A stretch of 64,000 nucleotides of DNA from an uncultured Acidobacteriota bacterium (GTDB lineage Bacteria > Actinomycetota > Acidimicrobiia > Spongiisociales > ZC4RG35), in contig CAWHEU010000022.1 in assembly GCA_963828465.1 (NCBI GenBank), forward strand, positions 32,001-96,000. Direction: 5' to 3'. The notes beneath the pieces are model-generated. The model was given only the letters and a program-made list of their open reading frames with translations, made no database searches and had not been told where the DNA came from. Positions 47,586 to 53,652 of the stretch are shown here, one piece after another (positions within the stretch are counted from its first letter, which is position 1; each line of letters opens with the position of its first letter). Position numbers and translations under genes: made by a program.

Positions 47586-49178
47586 TCAGCTGGAGAGATG
47601 TTGCGACTGACCGATCGACTGACCAGTGCCGTTCCGGTTGGCGGCTATCGCCTTGGTCCCGGCTTCGTTGGACTGATCGAGGTCCTTCTGGCCGCGGTCG
47701 GACATGTTGGACTGATCGGTTTCAGCGTTCGGCTGTGCGTTCTGGTTGGTGGTGTTGTTGTTCCCAGCCGTCTGTGACTGAGTCCTGACACACCGGTCGC
47801 AGTCCGCCCCGAGGCAGTCCTTGTCCTTGTGGTCGCGGTCGTCCTTGTCCTTGTGGTCGCGGTCGTCCTTGTCCTTGTGGTCGCGGTCGTCCTTGTCCTT
47901 GTGGTCGCGGTCGTCCTTGTCCTTGTGGTCGCGGTCGTCCTTGTCCTGGTGGTCGCGGTCGTCCTTGTCCTGGTGGTCGCGGTCGTCCTTGTCCCGGGCA
48001 GTCTGATCCTGGTCGATCGACTGCTCGGTGCCGTTCTCGTTGACGGCTAAGACGGTGGTCTCAGCCTCGTTGGACTGCTCGGCGCCATCGCGTTCGCGCT
48101 CCGACTCGTAGCCCTTGTTCCAGGTCGGATTCGGGGCCTGAGCCTGGTCGGATCCGGTCTGATTGGACTGGTTGGTCGTCGCGCTGGGAGTGGCGTCTTG
48201 GTTGGTGGTGTTGTTGTTCTCAGCTGTTTGCGTCTGAGATCCGCCACTTTCCGAACCGCACTTGCCGCAGCTATCACGGTCGTCACCGGCGGTCTGATCC
48301 TGGTCGATCGACTGCTCGGTGCCGTTCTCGTTGACGGCTACGACGGTGGTCTCAGCCTCGTTGGCTTGTTCGGCGCCACCGTTTTCACGATGCGAGTCAT
48401 CACTTTTCCACTCCTTCGGGGCCCAGGACTGACCCTTGTCAGACCCGATCTCGTTGGACTGGTTGGTCGTCGCGCTGGGAGTGGCGTTTTGGTTGGTGGT
48501 GTTGTTGTTCTCTGCGTATTGCTCGAGATAACCGTCACCTTCCGAACCGCACTTGCCACAGCCACCAAAGTCGTCACCGGCGGTCTGATCCTGGTCGATC
48601 GACTGCTCGGTGCCGTTCTGATTAACCCCAACGACAGTGGTCTCAGCCTCGTTTGACTGATCGACTTTGCCGTTGTTGCTGTCCTTGCTGAGGACGGCCA
48701 CCGGGGCATACACGTTGACCTGATTGGTCTCCGCGCTCGGCTCTGCGTTCTGGTTGGTCGTGTTGTTGTTCTCAGCTGTTTGCGTCTGAGATCCGCCACT
48801 TTCCGAACCGCACTTGCCGCAGCTATCACGGTCGTCACCGGCAGTCTGATCCTGGTCGATCGACTGCTCGGTGCCGTTCTCGTTGACGGCGACCACCTTC
48901 GTATCAGCCTCGTTCGACTGATCCACTTTGCCGTTGTTGCTACCGGTGCTGAGGACAGCTATCGGTGCATACACGTTGACCTGATTGGTCTCGGCGCTCG
49001 GCTCGGCGGTCTGGTTGGTCTCGTTTGTGTTGGTTGCTTCTTGGGTCAGGCTGATGATCGCCTCGGGGTCCACAGGGAGTGGACTCTCCGAACTGGCACT
49101 CGCCATTCCGGCGGTTGCGATCATTGCCCCACTGGCGAGCGCGGCCGTTGTCAGCGCTCTCTTGAGCCAGTGCTTCAT
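47586..49178 (-). CDS. secreted N/Q/T-rich repeat protein (curli-like / beta-solenoid candidate)
   Basis: Sec signal MKHWLKRALTTAALASGAMIATAGMASA. Four near-identical modules QSNEAETTVVAVNENGTEQSIDQDQTA...ENNNTTNQ plus a diverged fifth. CGKC three times. Confidence 0.85.
   Translation of the reverse strand: MKHWLKRALTTAALASGAMIATAGMASASSESPLPVDPEAIISLTQEATNTNETNQTAEPSAETNQVNVYAPIAVLSTGSNNGKVDQSNEADTKVVAVNENGTEQSIDQDQTAGDDRDSCGKCGSESGGSQTQTAENNNTTNQNAEPSAETNQVNVYAPVAVLSKDSNNGKVDQSNEAETTVVGVNQNGTEQSIDQDQTAGDDFGGCGKCGSEGDGYLEQYAENNNTTNQNATPSATTNQSNEIGSDKGQSWAPKEWKSDDSHRENGGAEQANEAETTVVAVNENGTEQSIDQDQTAGDDRDSCGKCGSESGGSQTQTAENNNTTNQDATPSATTNQSNQTGSDQAQAPNPTWNKGYESERERDGAEQSNEAETTVLAVNENGTEQSIDQDQTARDKDDRDHQDKDDRDHQDKDDRDHKDKDDRDHKDKDDRDHKDKDDRDHKDKDDRDHKDKDCLGADCDRCVRTQSQTAGNNNTTNQNAQPNAETDQSNMSDRGQKDLDQSNEAGTKAIAANRNGTGQSIGQSQHLSS
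47817..47993 (-). repeat. 24-nt tandem repeat x7.4 encoding DKDDRDH(K/Q)
   Basis: Directly visible unit GTCCTTGTCCT(T/G)GTGGTCGCGGTC, contiguous with no spacers. Confidence 0.97.
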
Positions 49179-49182
49179 GATT

Positions 49183-49255
49183 CACCTCCATTGGGTGTCT
49201 GAGAAAACGCGCGACGGGCAGTCAGTCCTCGCTCGCGCGTTGCGAAATGGAGGTG
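49183..49255 (-). promoter_or_regulatory. SD-sequestering hairpin (translational attenuator/coupler)
   Basis: CACCTCCATT (49183-49192) and AATGGAGGTG (49246-49255) form a perfect 10-bp inverted repeat. Inner 9-bp stem 49206-49214/49233-49241. The 3' arm on the mRNA is the SD of the 49178 gene. Confidence 0.8.
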
Positions 49256-49256
49256 G

Positions 49257-50552
49257 TTAGCCGGGTAGCTCTAGTGCCTCTGCCAGGGCGAATGGGCGCC
49301 AGACAACCGGTCGAGGCCGGAGCCAGCGGCTCAACCGGGGCGCGATCAACCCGAGCAGAACGAGTACAGCTAGAAGACCTGATGTCGAGCCGGAGCTCGA
49401 GGAGGATGATGAGACAACGACCCCTGGTCGAGCTCGAAGCCCGGCACCCTCAAAGTCATACGGTGGGGGTTCAGGGCGGTTGGCGGCAGCTCTCGCGTCG
49501 GCTGCGCCGCCGGCCGCACTAGGAGTCGGCGACGCAGCAGCCACGACGGAATCCGAACCGTCGTCGACGATTACAGGCCGAGCCGTGAGCGGCGGTGGCA
49601 GCGGGCTACCGATTGTTGGCGGCTGTGGCCTCGTGGTGGGTCTCGTGGACCCCTGGTCCGGAGTGGGGATGGCTGTCTCCGGGTCATCGGAAGGGGGATT
49701 GGGCGCTGCCGGATCAGGATCCGTAGCAGAACCTCTGTCTGGGACGTCGTCGACTCCTCCGAGCAGATCTTCTGGCGAGGGGACCAAAGGGAGGGTGACA
49801 CCGACTAGATCATCGACCCCGTCGAGAATCGGGCCCGATACGTCATCGACGAGCCCGGTCGTTTCTTCGACCGTGGTCGTAACCACACCGAGAACGGGTT
49901 GCAGCGGCTCCGCGATCTGTTCGAGTGTCGGCGGAACAGTCCGGACAATTCGAGTCACCGGCTCTTCGATGGTGCCGGCGACGGAATCCACGACTTTCGG
50001 CACCGTATCGGTGACCGGTTCGGCGGCTTCGGTGACCGGTTCGACGACCCTGGTGACAGGTTCCACGGCTTCGGTGACCGGTTCGACGGCTTTGGCTACC
50101 GGTTCGACGACCCTGGTGACAGGTTCCACGGCTTTGGTGACCGGTTCGACGACTTGGGCTACCGGCTCGACGACCCTGGTGACCGGTTCCACGACTGCGT
50201 TCACGGGATTCTGCGGGGCGGGTTGCTGCGTGGGAGCGACGTCGCGCGAGGCTGGCTCAGGGACGATTTCGGTCACATCTTCGACGACTTCGGCAACACC
50301 AGTCTCCGACTGCTCGGGCTCCGGCTCGGGCGTAGATCCGGTTCCGGTTCCGAGGTCAATCTCCACTGGAAGCTCTTCGACGACCTCACCGATGCCGAGG
50401 GCCTGTGCGGTCCCGGCAGAGAGCGAGATCATGAATGCAGCCAGAGCGAGTGCGCCAGCGATCCTGGCGAGGGGATGTGCCTGACGCCGGTCTGCTGTTC
50501 CGGCCCGTGGAGCCTCTGTTACCGAATGCCTATCCATACCCAGCCCATGCAT
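49257..50552 (-). CDS. secreted/anchored Pro-Val-Glu-Thr-rich protein with C-terminal TM and LELPG end
   Basis: Signal-like ALALAAFMISLSAGTAQA, VEPV repeats, Pro-rich linker, Ser run, TM LLAVLVLLGLIA, basic tail. ATG at 50552 follows GGGAGGT. Confidence 0.8.
   Translation of the reverse strand: MHGLGMDRHSVTEAPRAGTADRRQAHPLARIAGALALAAFMISLSAGTAQALGIGEVVEELPVEIDLGTGTGSTPEPEPEQSETGVAEVVEDVTEIVPEPASRDVAPTQQPAPQNPVNAVVEPVTRVVEPVAQVVEPVTKAVEPVTRVVEPVAKAVEPVTEAVEPVTRVVEPVTEAAEPVTDTVPKVVDSVAGTIEEPVTRIVRTVPPTLEQIAEPLQPVLGVVTTTVEETTGLVDDVSGPILDGVDDLVGVTLPLVPSPEDLLGGVDDVPDRGSATDPDPAAPNPPSDDPETAIPTPDQGSTRPTTRPQPPTIGSPLPPPLTARPVIVDDGSDSVVAAASPTPSAAGGAADARAAANRPEPPPYDFEGAGLRARPGVVVSSSSSSSGSTSGLLAVLVLLGLIAPRLSRWLRPRPVVWRPFALAEALELPG
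50004..50192 (-). repeat. 21-nt degenerate tandem repeat x9 encoding (V/A)EPVxxx
   Basis: VEPVTRV VEPVAQV VEPVTKA VEPVTRV VEPVAKA VEPVTEA VEPVTRV VEPVTEA AEPVTDT. Confidence 0.95.
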
Positions 50553-50669
50553 ACCGTCGGACCTCCCGCGAGGGAGGTGCCTGGCTCCGGCGACGAGCAC
50601 CATACCCGACTCATGGGATCTCGAAACCACAACGGTTAGAAGCGCGAAAAGAAACCTTGCCGTGGCTCG

Positions 50670-50777: not shown

Positions 50778-50897
50778 GACCTTCTCCTTCCTGACCGGTT
50801 TTCGGCCTTCATGACTAACGAATCGGTCCGGCCCGGATCGGCAAGTCCGAGAGTTCAATCCCAGGATGCCGACCACGCCCTGGTTAACGTTTTTCGC

Positions 50898-52289
50898 ATG
50901 GGAGCGAAGGTGGCGGGTCGAAACAGGGCTGGGCCCGCGTCCAAGCAATGGAGTATCCCCTCCAAGCTGACCTTGGCCACTGTGCCGATCGTGGTGGTTG
51001 CTGGCCTGCTCGGGGTGTTCCTGGTGTGGTCGCTGTCGGCTTCAGGAGATGTCTGGCTTGCGGTGATAGTCGGGATCGTTGTCGGGCTCGTGGCTGTCGG
51101 ATCGCTTGTCGTCTCTTACCGGATCGGCCGAGCGATCGGCACCCGAATCGGTGCTGTCACCCACGCAGCGAGGCGTGTCGCCCATAAGGATCTGGTCGAG
51201 CTGCTCGACGCACTGCGCACATCCGATCCTGGCTCCGACGCCATCTCACCACTGGGTCTCGACATCGACTCGGGCGATGAGATCGGTGATCTGTCCCGAT
51301 CATTCGAAAACATGCACCGGGCCTTGATCGATACTTCGACCCGACAGATGGAGTCTTTGCGTGTAGGGGTGTCGGGCATCCTGGTAACTCTCGCTCGGCG
51401 CAACAGCTCGCTGGTCGATCGACAGCTGGCGCTGCTCGACGAACTCGAGTCCCGCGAGGAGGATCCTGAGACCCTCGGAGGGTATTACCAGGTCGACCAT
51501 CTGGCGGCACGGATGCGCCGGAATGCCGAAAGCCTCCTCGTGCTCGCCGGGTCCGAGTCACCCCGTGTATGGGCTAAGCCCACGGAGATCTCCGATGTGG
51601 TTCGAGCTGCGCTGAGCGAGGTGGATGAGTACCAGCGCGTCGAGCTGCTCGCCTTGGAGCCGGCTCGCCTGTCTGCCGGAGCCGTTACCGATGTCGCACA
51701 TCTCCTCGCCGAGCTCTTCGAGAACTCCCTGCAGTTCTCTCCGCCGACCGAGCCCGTGCGCGTCACCGGGCTATTCGACGTCGGTGGGTATGAGCTCTCG
51801 ATCTCGGACCACGGGGTCGGGATATCCGACCCGAGGCTGGCCGAGATGAACCGGATCCTCGAGCGCCCGCCCGCCCTCGGCCTATCGGTCGAGCCCACGA
51901 TGGGGATATATGTCGTAGCGAAGCTCGCCCATCGGCACGGGCTCGATGTCCAGCTGATCCCCAGTGTCCCCGGAATCACTGTCAAGGTGACCATTCCCCG
52001 CGATCGTCTGGAGATGGCGAGGGTAGAGCCGGACTACGACGTCATCGATCTGACACAGCCAGAGATGATCGAAACCGCCGACCCTGAGCCGGTCGCGGTG
52101 GCGCCGGTGCCTGTCGCCGAGGTGGAAGCCGGAGATCTGCCGGTGCGCATCCCGGGCCGAGCGTTCCGCGAGGAGGAGCCGGCAACAACCATCGCTGCCG
52201 GAGAGGGCGGCGGCACCCTCAGATCGGCGCTGGTCGATTACAACCGGGGCAGGGCCGAGGCCGAGGCACAGGGGGAGAGCGATGACTGA
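50898..52289 (+). CDS. cvnA: conservon sensor kinase-like membrane ATPase
   Basis: Two TM segments, HAMP (DEIGDLSRSF), LARRNSSLVDRQL, DHLAARMRRNAESLLVLAG, AELFEN, SDHGVG. Confidence 0.9.
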   Translation: MGAKVAGRNRAGPASKQWSIPSKLTLATVPIVVVAGLLGVFLVWSLSASGDVWLAVIVGIVVGLVAVGSLVVSYRIGRAIGTRIGAVTHAARRVAHKDLVELLDALRTSDPGSDAISPLGLDIDSGDEIGDLSRSFENMHRALIDTSTRQMESLRVGVSGILVTLARRNSSLVDRQLALLDELESREEDPETLGGYYQVDHLAARMRRNAESLLVLAGSESPRVWAKPTEISDVVRAALSEVDEYQRVELLALEPARLSAGAVTDVAHLLAELFENSLQFSPPTEPVRVTGLFDVGGYELSISDHGVGISDPRLAEMNRILERPPALGLSVEPTMGIYVVAKLAHRHGLDVQLIPSVPGITVKVTIPRDRLEMARVEPDYDVIDLTQPEMIETADPEPVAVAPVPVAEVEAGDLPVRIPGRAFREEEPATTIAAGEGGGTLRSALVDYNRGRAEAEAQGESDD

Positions 52290-52707
52290 CGCTGCCACCA
52301 ATCTCAACTGGCTGATCGAGCGTCTCTGCGCGACAGTGCCCGCCATCAAACAGGCGGTCGTGGTCTCATCCGATGGGCTCGCCATGGCCAAGTCACAGGA
52401 CGTCGACCGCGAGACGGCGGAGAGATTGGCTGCCGTGTCATCAGGCATGATCGGCCTGGCCTACGGGTCCGCCGGCCGGTTTGGGGCCGGTGCGGTGTCG
52501 AACATCATCGTCGAGATGCAGCAGGGTTGGCTCTTCGTCACCGGCATCCGTCACGGCTCCCTCCTCTGCTGTCTCACCAGCAAAGAGATCGACCTTGGGG
52601 CGGTCGCCTTCGAAATGTCCATCTTCGTGCAGCGGGTCGGCGACAGTCTCACTCCCGACGTTCGGGAGGAGCTCAAGGCACGGCTGGTCGAACCCGAGCC
52701 GGCATGA
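52282..52707 (+). CDS. cvnB: roadblock/LC7 domain protein
   Basis: LNWLI, VVVSSDGL, LAAVSSG, VAFEM. Confidence 0.92.
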   Translation: MTDAATNLNWLIERLCATVPAIKQAVVVSSDGLAMAKSQDVDRETAERLAAVSSGMIGLAYGSAGRFGAGAVSNIIVEMQQGWLFVTGIRHGSLLCCLTSKEIDLGAVAFEMSIFVQRVGDSLTPDVREELKARLVEPEPA

Positions 52708-53084
52708 GCACCGAGCCCGGAACCCCTCTCGGCGGCCGGATCGTCCGCCCATACACCATGACCGGTGGGCGGAGCGGTGTGGGACTCCCCAATATCGCCC
52801 TCGAAGCCCTGGTCGCCGTGACCCCTGCTGGGATGCGAATGCGGGGTCGTTTCCGCTGGGAAGCCGCTGAGATCATCGCCCAGAGCCGCAAGGAGATCGC
52901 CATCGTCGAGCTGGCGGCGAATCTCGAGGTCCCGGTCGGCGTGATCCGTGTTCTCGCCGCTGACCTGCGCGACCAAGGAGCGATCACCATCACCGAGCCG
53001 CTGTCCGAAGCCACGGTCGATTCAGGTGACACCGAATATGCCGAACTCCTCCACAAGGTGCTCGATGGGATCCGGGCTCTCTGA
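52704..53084 (+). CDS. cvnC: DUF742 protein
   Basis: VRPYTMTGGRS, ELAANLEVPVGVIRVLAADL, LLHKVLDGIRAL. ATGA overlap with cvnB. Confidence 0.92.
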   Translation: MSTEPGTPLGGRIVRPYTMTGGRSGVGLPNIALEALVAVTPAGMRMRGRFRWEAAEIIAQSRKEIAIVELAANLEVPVGVIRVLAADLRDQGAITITEPLSEATVDSGDTEYAELLHKVLDGIRAL

Positions 53085-53652
53085 GCGCACCGGGCTGACC
53101 CCGGTCAAGATCGTCATCGCCGGCGGCTTCGGCGTGGGCAAAACGACCTTCGTTGGCGCCATCTCCGAGATCGAGCCATTGCGAAGCGAGGCGATCATCA
53201 CCGACGCCAGCGCGGGGATCGATGAGCTCTACCCCGACGGCACTAAGACCGAAACGACGGTGGCCATGGATTTCGGCCGCATCAGCCTCAAGCATCGTCT
53301 CGTCCTCTATCTGTTCGGCACCCCCGGTCAGGACCGCTTCCATTTCATGTGGGACGAGCTGGCCCGGGGCGCCATTGGGGCAGTGGTCCTGGTCGACACC
53401 CGCCGAATCGAGGCGTGTTTTGCCGCCATCGACTTCTTCGAGAAGCGGGGAACACCGTTCGTAGTGGCGGTGAACACCTTCCACGGGCGTCGAATCCACG
53501 AGCCCGAACTGGTTCGGGAAGCACTGCGCATTGGCCCCGACATCCCGATTGTCTATTGCGATGCCAGGGTCCGTGTGGATGTCCAACGAGCGCTACAGGC
53601 GGTGGTCGAACACACCTTGGAACGGGTGATGTCCGAGTCTGCGGCCAGCTGA
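53065..53652 (+). CDS. cvnD: small Ras-like GTPase
   Basis: KIVIAGGFGVGKTT, TTVAMDFG, LFGTPGQDRF, VVAVN, CDAR. Confidence 0.93.
   Translation: MGSGLSERTGLTPVKIVIAGGFGVGKTTFVGAISEIEPLRSEAIITDASAGIDELYPDGTKTETTVAMDFGRISLKHRLVLYLFGTPGQDRFHFMWDELARGAIGAVVLVDTRRIEACFAAIDFFEKRGTPFVVAVNTFHGRRIHEPELVREALRIGPDIPIVYCDARVRVDVQRALQAVVEHTLERVMSESAAS

Follow-up and report, generated by a model that had tools for sequence, protein, structure and literature searches.

Candidate ribosome-gated junctions behind Pro-Gly-stop precede a signal-peptide repeat protein or a STAS-domain protein in actinobacteria

In classical translational coupling, a downstream gene's Shine-Dalgarno (SD) sequence is paired with the end of the upstream open reading frame (ORF) and is opened by the ribosome translating that frame. 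Arrest peptides of the protein localization machinery possess an N-terminal signal and a conserved C-terminus, and the stem containing the downstream SD is opened by the stalled ribosome; in some of them, stalling occurs while the stop codon occupies the A site (PMC10987492). As set out in the part of the survey by Fujiwara et al. (2024) available to us, candidates were defined as small ORFs of unknown function located directly upstream of secA, secDF, or yidC, with more than 30 residues from the localization signal to the end of the conserved sequence (PMC10987492). The actinobacterial ApcA, encoded upstream of yidC2, arrests at R-A-P-G when Pro occupies the P site and Gly the A site; N, T, S, D, or A in place of this Gly leave arrest at the wild-type level, and, counted from the first base in the P site, the ribosome reaches 15 to 17 nt (Sakiyama et al. 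2021; PMC7897499, in the sections drawn on here). Here we describe a junction between two genes, A and B, in a 64,000-nt stretch (hereafter, the window) of contig CAWHEU010000022.1 from an uncultured bacterium placed in the class Acidimicrobiia, in which the sequence adjoining the stop codon of gene A is complementary to the SD of gene B. Our overall reading, to which we assign a probability of about 45%, is that a ribosome at the end of A unmasks this SD, probably with a pause resembling that of ApcA.

Both genes lie on the minus strand and, in window numbering, which is used throughout, the junction comprises the following features:

Gene A, 49257..50552, minus strand: 431 aa, ATG at 50552.
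Hydrophobic segment GLLAVLVLLGLIA, 49341..49379, minus strand: codons of a predicted stop-transfer helix, judged by eye.
Tail PRLSRWLRPRPVVWRPFALAEALELPG, 49260..49340, minus strand: codons of the 27-residue, predicted cytosolic tail, the candidate pause element.
Stop codon of gene A, 49257..49259, minus strand: TAA, next base C (49256).
Anti-SD arm CACCTCCATT, 49246..49255, minus strand: one base past the stop codon of A.
Inner clamp hairpin, 49206..49241, minus strand: 9-bp stem AACGCGCGA/TCGCGCGTT plus a small apical stem.
Inner-stem strands, minus strand: AACGCGCGA at 49241-49233 and TCGCGCGTT at 49214-49206.
SD arm AATGGAGGTG, 49183..49192, minus strand: SD of gene B with the core GGAGG, wholly paired with the anti-SD arm.
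Gene B, 47586..49178, minus strand: 530 aa, preceded by AATC, ATG start at 49178-49176.
Second SD-hiding hairpin, 50561..50578, minus strand: ACCTCCC-TCGC-GGGAGGT, 8 nt before the ATG of A.

The end of gene A reads ...CTA CCC GGC TAA C and is followed by CACCTCCATT; within the 78-nt spacer separating the two genes, CACCTCCATT and AATGGAGGTG form a perfect 10-bp outer stem enclosing the inner 9-bp stem. When a 106-nt stretch was folded using ViennaRNA, the SD was located inside the outer stem in the minimum free energy (MFE) and centroid structures alike, with a fold energy of −36 kcal/mol against −25.75 ± 3.18 kcal/mol in 200 dinucleotide shuffles (z = −3.22), none of which folded as well as the real junction (0/200). 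A preliminary description of this DNA had proposed a translational switch of the SecM/MifM type here. The junction and all the elements it described are present where it had placed them on the minus strand, and the sequence and the fold confirm both that the anti-SD arm adjoins the stop codon of A and that the SD is fully paired. In the 3.07-Mb genome, 849 sites combine GGAGG and a start codon with an ORF of 100 aa or longer. Only 3 of them show a perfect complement, 10 nt or longer, within 130 nt upstream, and this junction is the only one of the 25 sites with the longest complements in which the complement lies directly behind the stop codon of a long ORF. The genome carries one copy of the module.

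Protein A consists of a signal-peptide-like N-terminus, a low-complexity body rich in Pro, Val, and Glu (with VEPVT repeats), a C-terminal helix, and a tail. Its start was chosen from the GGGAGGT located 8 nt upstream and from the way its homologues begin. The signal peptide and the membrane segment were judged by eye: the N-terminus has a basic region followed by the hydrophobic ARIAGALALAAFMISLSAGTAQA, a pattern repeated in the homologues, and the near-C-terminal segment and the 27-residue tail can be recognized as the preliminary description had it. About 350 residues follow the signal peptide, and the C-terminal helix is only 23 to 27 residues from the end; basic residues after the helix predict an orientation with the N-terminal side outside and the C-terminal side in the cytoplasm. 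A-type proteins across the family span 330 to 760 aa. Neither A nor B matched anything above the cutoff in Pfam or NCBIfam, and the ESM Atlas returned only unnamed actinobacterial clusters with scores below 0.9.

B was detected in 6 of 301 genomes of the same order and in 7 of 201 genomes of the same family (own genome counted), and these hits together with 5 metagenome contigs yielded 11 distinct close junctions. Conservation of the stem, which the preliminary description had set as a test of its proposal, is evident in this set: the stop codon, the following 1 to 3 nt, the anti-SD arm, and the SD arm are kept in all 11, and the outer stem was recovered in the MFE structures of all 8 relatives folded singly (z from −2.5 to −4.6). 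In the most distant of them, G046, whose B protein is 59% identical, a shifted but compensated arm occupies the same place, with ACTTCACCT pairing with AGGTGAAGT, and the inner stem is wholly different (TGCGAACGG/CCGTTCGCA). Within the clade, the inner stem displays a double change from AACGCGCG/CGCGCGTT to CACGCGCG/CGCGCGTG, and the apical stem occurs among the relatives as GGAA/TTCC, GGAG/CTCC, and GGAC/GTCC. In the window, TTTTCTC comes directly after the GC-rich inner stem, and T-rich tracts are found in several close relatives, as would befit an intrinsic terminator or attenuator acting to reduce read-through into B, to which the SD pairing is secondary. We regard such a function as highly improbable: the minus strand has no terminator according to a consensus scan, the loop measures 18 nt, and the T tract is absent from G046, L045, L046, and the Solirubrobacterales spacers, in which the outer stem persists. 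Bypass or read-through yielding an A-B fusion was rejected, given an in-frame TGA just before the ATG and family spacer lengths that are not multiples of three.

To place the junction in a broader context, the B family was scanned using one genome per species, which revealed 52 loci in Acidimicrobiia, Solirubrobacterales, Conexibacter, and Gaiellaceae. At 47 of these loci, the upstream gene is of the A type, that is, a same-strand ORF ending within 260 nt and encoding a helix, a basic stretch, and ...PG-stop, with the other 5 corresponding to contig ends, internal matches, or a Bacillota record. Pairing was assessed by comparing the stop codon plus 14 nt (the stop window) with the last 22 nt before the start and requiring a perfect complement of at least 6 nt; gene starts, as well as the STAS-like and B labels of the junction sets, were assigned by simple heuristics. 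Such a complement is present in 30 of the 56 distinct B-family junctions, as compared with 5.0% of shuffled windows (n = 11,200), 2.0% of interior spacer windows (n = 398), and 3.2% of coding windows (n = 280), and in 20 of 46 when the window's own CACCTCC clade is left aside. The MFE structures pair at least 3 SD bases with the stop window in 29/56 junctions, and the SD is paired somewhere in 45/56. Of the 146 distinct junctions assembled in total, 94 contain a perfect anti-SD of at least 6 nt, against 2% to 8% in controls. In 90 of the 94, a distance of 0 to 4 nt separates the start of the arm from the stop codon's first base, and the arm comes in at least 5 sequences, including AGCTCC, GCTCCT, CACCTCC, CCGCTC, and CTTCACC.

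These positions bear on the possibility that the hairpin regulates B independently of the translation of A, for instance, as an RNA thermometer, as the target of an RNA-binding protein, helicase, or small RNA, or as an element for processing or stability (an RNase III site, for example), in which case its position at the stop codon would be incidental. The family spacers (56 to 135 nt) are very stable, with fold energies of −30 to −72 kcal/mol, as this explanation would have it. In addition, the SD of A is itself locked in the 7-bp hairpin listed above, with no ORF ending before it; both genes of the pair thus have masked ribosome-binding sites, and at least one SD of the operon must be opened otherwise than by an upstream ribosome. 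This second hairpin is kept in 4/4 close relatives for which the region is available (the window, G209, L039, and L042), and its loop letters differ in G209, L039, and L042. Independent regulation nevertheless appears improbable, because the arm adheres to the stop codon despite the variable spacer lengths and differing arm sequences, and a complement is found in just 2% of interior spacer windows. Known RNA thermometers are, furthermore, generally far less stable than the −36 kcal/mol of the window's stem.

One spacer departs from the general scheme. At L047:2424-2500, a 10-bp hairpin CGGAGGATCC/GGATCCTCCG begins 11 nt past the stop codon, an SD-like GGAGG pairs with CCTCC, and the real SD is predicted to be free; this spacer may represent a three-part switch of opposite logic. 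With respect to expression, two metatranscriptome runs contained contigs 85% to 97% similar to A's tail and to B's 5′ end; no contig bridged the spacer and DNA carry-over is possible, so that they speak neither for nor against co-transcription.

The junction is not confined to the B family. The DNA pattern V-L-[I/L]-P-E-R-P-G-stop matched at least 120 stretches, and the matches listed include 99 junctions, classified as 76 STAS-like, 12 B, and 11 other, with 18 lacking a start by the heuristic. Three non-actinobacterial matches, including two Pannonibacter isolates, were discarded as chance occurrences in short open frames. The Pfam profile PF01740 (STAS) scored above the gathering threshold in 5/5 proteins tested, the other 71 being labeled by a regular expression. 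The preliminary description had linked the module to a secreted protein; it is not confined to one, since among the matches listed its tail, stop codon, and hairpin mostly precede, in Solirubrobacterales, a gene for a cytoplasmic STAS-domain protein. The upstream proteins of these sister cassettes (L099-L218; e.g., L110:750-2618) possess signal-peptide-like starts and Pro/Val/Glu-rich bodies and have no Pfam family. One STAS cassette is a two-gene unit flanked by unrelated genes, and both cassette types occur at distant sites in the same genomes. The start of the STAS protein (MKRH..A.A.SV) resembles the start of the signal peptide of B, which suggests that the junction was duplicated along with the first codons of the downstream gene.

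The junction is alike in both cassette types and runs from ...FVLIPERPG through TAG, CTCCT(TCC), the inner stem GCGCTGGATC/GATCCAGCGC, and (GGA)AGGAGCT to ATG AAA CGC CAT. Among the matches listed, an arm of at least 6 nt is present in 55/76 STAS-type junctions, and the MFE structure pairs at least 3 SD bases with the stop window in 47/55 of those folded. When the proposed structure was imposed on 69 STAS-type spacers, 86% of cells were paired, compared with 28% to 48% when the partner strand was slid, a count that leans toward the proposed structure because the outer stem had to be named explicitly; none of 500 shuffles reached any of the five measures for this structure, and RNAalifold applied to a MAFFT alignment of the 69 spacers returned the inner hairpin only. 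Double changes in these spacers are mostly in the inner hairpin, and the SD core is invariant. With regard to the covariation that the preliminary description asked about, compensated changes exist in the shifted arm of G046 and in the inner hairpin.

The second conserved component of the junction is the C-terminal tail of A. In pairwise comparisons of 18 homologues by 20-residue windows, the identity of A ranges from 0.22 to 0.54 in the body and from 0.76 to 0.91 in the last 46 residues. Synonymous changes exceed nonsynonymous ones among the tail codons in 9/10 comparisons with relatives (e.g., 8 versus 3), the exception being the distant G046, and the conserved tail residues are encoded by several different codons. 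Judging by these substitutions, selection acts on the peptide sequence of the tail. An alignment of 24 diverse tails is nearly gap-free all the way from the helix to the C-terminus, with Pro at position −2 and Gly at position −1 as the only invariant residues; the window's own tail has Trp at position −14 and ends in ...ELPG. The last four residues in the 56 B-family junctions are ERPG in 35, ELPG in 8, DRPG in 5, and others in 8, and the distance from the end of the helix to the C-terminus is 23 to 27 aa in 50/56. The stop codons of the family are TAG (28), TAA (24), and TGA (4), compared with a genome background, calculated from open frames of at least 300 codons, of 1,848 TGA, 558 TAG, and 177 TAA; the base following the family stop codon is C in 48/56.

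When a profile built from these 24 tails was run against a database of 1.84 billion representative proteins, it produced 554 hits at E ≤ 0.001, each hit being a protein cluster at 50% identity. In all of the best 150 of these 554, the tail motif is at the extreme C-terminus (last or last-but-one residue). The endings among the best 150 are PG in 141, PD in 8, and PS in 1; Pro −2 is present in 150, Arg −3 in 147, Trp −14 in 116, and the complete ERPG in 125. The nine ...ERPD or ...ERPS endings belong to P0171, P0182, P0184, P0193, P0205, P0215, P0216, P0223, and P0224. The C-terminal motif, whose conservation the preliminary description had likewise set as a test, is therefore kept far beyond close relatives, although the LExPG form that it named is a local variant of the family consensus (E/D)RPG.

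Sorting signals of the LPXTG and PEP-CTERM kinds place a signature motif before a membrane helix and a short basic tail after it. A signal of this type was rejected for A: there is no conserved motif before the helix, the conserved motif is 23 to 27 residues past it, and NCBIfam gave no hit. Whether or not the tail causes stalling, the invariant Pro-Gly end of this membrane-protein family calls for an explanation.

Based on these observations, the following sequence of events can be proposed. In free mRNA, the sequence at the stop codon of A would pair with the SD of B, and the inner hairpin would clamp the two arms, preventing initiation at B. Once the Pro-Gly or Gly-stop codons have entered its P and A sites, a ribosome would cover approximately 6 to 11 nt past the stop codon, or most of the anti-SD arm, as follows from a reach of 15 to 17 nt from the first P-site base; melting of the arm by a ribosome at the end of A would free the nearby SD. 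At that moment, the 23- to 27-residue tail would be situated in the exit tunnel, where it would most likely slow peptide-bond formation or release, as the R-A-P-G of ApcA does; the length of the pause would set the time for which the SD stays open, and insertion of the upstream membrane helix could shorten it. The proposal builds on the predicted structure, its conservation and covariation, its location at the stop codon, the selection on the tail peptide, the constant spacing from helix to C-terminus, and the two unrelated downstream genes, all of which the comparisons document at the level of sequence. Coupling through ribosome-dependent unmasking of the SD appears well supported on these grounds, and a nascent-chain pause at the tail of A is plausible; that membrane insertion would release the pause and that B synthesis would depend on A, we infer. 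It is conceivable, if unlikely, that the junctions represent a broad class of large type I membrane "leaders" (at least 554 clusters, in Acidimicrobiia and Thermoleophilia) in which a force-sensitive, ApcA-like arrest tail, active at the last two codons, would convey the outcome of export or insertion to the synthesis of a STAS partner-switching regulator or a secreted surface protein.

Several considerations weigh against SD unmasking with a pause. A perfect stop-proximal arm of 6 nt is lacking from 52 of the 146 junctions, in which the PG ending is still kept, and the SD is predicted to be free in 8 of the 56 B-family junctions; the tail is therefore conserved even where this stem is lacking. 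Pro-Gly-stop was part of both the upstream-ORF search pattern and the DNA pattern, so that the invariance of PG in junctions found by pattern is by construction; evidence independent of that pattern comes from a pass restricted to the nearest long ORF, in which ...ERPG tails were already visible, and from the tail-profile search. The counts overstate the number of independent events because the carriers are mutually related, and the module-bearing records found are all metagenome-assembled genomes. The E-R-P-G ending is not the published [R/Q/H]-[A/G]-P-[P/G] pattern, and A, at 330 to 760 aa, is a large protein rather than a short leader, such that the tail could serve A itself. With 23 to 27 residues following it, the helix is still partly inside the tunnel when the ribosome is at the stop codon; force-profile work indicates that a helix at that distance from the peptidyl-transferase center could sense insertion force.

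Some of the same points would suit plain translational coupling with no special pause, in which a terminating ribosome melts the stem and fixes the B:A ratio and the tail serves A, for example, as an anchor with a cytosolic contact motif; we consider this a real but doubtful possibility. It would share its geometry and conservation with SD unmasking accompanied by a pause, it accords with a protein A that is large, exported, of low complexity, and structural-looking, as well as with tails kept even at junctions without a stop-proximal arm, and a published reporter assumed, in the part of the paper drawn on here, that a normal ribosome transiently opens the SD stem (PMC10987492). The position of the motif is harder to accommodate, since an ordinary binding motif need not end at the last or last-but-one residue in 150/150 of the best hits. 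Moreover, the final position varies only among G, D, and S, all of which give wild-type arrest at the A-site position of ApcA (PMC7897499), the helix-to-end distance is nearly fixed, and the same tail accompanies both a secreted and a cytoplasmic partner, which argues against a partner-specific contact.

Comparison with the described systems delineates what is shared and what is not. The likeness to ApcA, as far as the available sections of that report go, includes the actinobacterial origin, a C-terminal motif in which Arg is followed by Pro/Gly, a downstream gene on the same mRNA, natural G, D, and S variants that lie inside the A-site set tolerated by ApcA, and an invariant Pro −2 combined with an N-out/C-in helix at a fixed distance (PMC7897499). 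In contrast, the motif is R-A-P-G in ApcA and E-R-P-G here (E-L-P-G in the window), with no residue intervening between Arg and Pro and with Gly as the last codon before the stop; ApcA is small and has N-terminal membrane segments, whereas the proteins considered here carry a signal peptide and a C-terminal helix; and the target is YidC in the former and a secreted repeat protein or a STAS protein in the latter, where any arrest is putative.

Likewise, in SecM-secA and MifM-yidC2, a ribosome held shortly before the upstream ORF ends opens a stem that sequesters the SD, and the product of that ORF is itself a substrate of export or insertion (PMC10987492, in the part consulted); there is, however, no sequence similarity, the targets here are not translocase genes, and the putative stall would be at the stop codon or one codon before it. 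Arrest peptides stalling at stop codons also have a conserved extreme C-terminus and an N-terminal localization signal, and they hold the stop codon in the A site, as the putative stall here might. They are marked by conserved residues at −1 and −3 and by a need for the stop codon; here G, D, or S is at −1, with Arg at −3 in 147/150 of the best hits. Those described in the same part of that paper are from Bacteroidota and Firmicutes, end in Pro or Lys, and precede secA or secDF, whereas the ending here is Pro-Gly (PMC10987492), followed by TAG or TAA in 52/56 family junctions.

Among the features used to recognize Sec/YidC monitoring substrates, the N-terminal signal (by eye), the conserved C-terminus, a spacing of more than 30 residues, and the sequestered SD stem are all found at the junction, whereas the leader of 431 aa is not a small ORF and its target genes are other than secA, secDF, and yidC. 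The junction also displays the mark of classical coupling, in that the SD pairs, in a conserved manner, with the end of the upstream ORF at a place that a ribosome at the stop codon can reach, but differs from it in arms 56 to 135 nt apart, the inner-hairpin clamp, the conserved tail, and the reuse with unrelated genes. Given the differing motif, the large leader, and targets other than sec and yidC, the junction falls outside the known arrest-peptide classes despite its like geometry. Literature searches returned nothing linking arrest peptides to anti-sigma factor antagonists, with the proviso that the supplementary files of PMC7897499 and PMC10987492 may list related ORFs, and nothing on this junction module under coupling, anti-SD, and stop codon; those on termination stalling at Pro-Gly returned work on 2A/StopGo and PepNL, available to us in part.

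Protein B is composed of a signal peptide, MKHWLKRALTTAALASGAMIATAGMASA, and repeats of approximately 95 aa that are rich in Q, N, T, and D and contain CGKCG motifs; in the C-terminal third, seven tandem copies of a charged KDDRDH unit are located between Q/N-rich repeats. In the homologue from G046, another charged tandem (DSKDKP.H) takes this place. The search for homologues of B collected 66 proteins at E ≤ 0.001, including the query, all of them unnamed or "hypothetical," with no paralogue in its own genome; weak matches in G015, G094, and G155 are limited to the charged, low-complexity portion. An AlphaFold2 model made from the single sequence was uninformative (pLDDT 40), and with 35 sequences AlphaFold2 produced long beta-strands at a pLDDT of 52.5, predicting with low confidence that B is all-beta. 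The "secreted fibre protein" of the preliminary description is thus upheld in its signal peptide and Q/N/T-rich repeats, whereas a fiber is not established. At L014 (G389) and L016/L021 (G392), in two genomes of the same genus, the junction is intact and B is a short or frame-broken remnant, which could reflect true decay or the collapse of repeats in short-read assembly. Divergently from gene A, a conservon-like operon on the plus strand (50811-53652) encodes a HAMP/HATPase sensor kinase, a Roadblock/LC7 protein, an ATP_bind_1 GTPase-like protein, and one further gene.

The monitoring substrates covered in the available parts of PMC7897499 and PMC10987492 all feed back on the localization machinery and came to light through searches of the regions upstream of sec and yidC genes. 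The module described here shares their hallmarks but lies ahead of a gene for a secreted repeat protein or, in the sister cassettes, for a STAS-domain regulator. Should the tail stall the ribosome, nascent-chain sensing would extend past translocase homeostasis into envelope signaling, and these proteins would be the first monitoring substrates wired to signaling and surface genes rather than to components of Sec or YidC. If it does not, the junctions would still provide an unusually clear case of long-range, structure-clamped coupling with comparative support.

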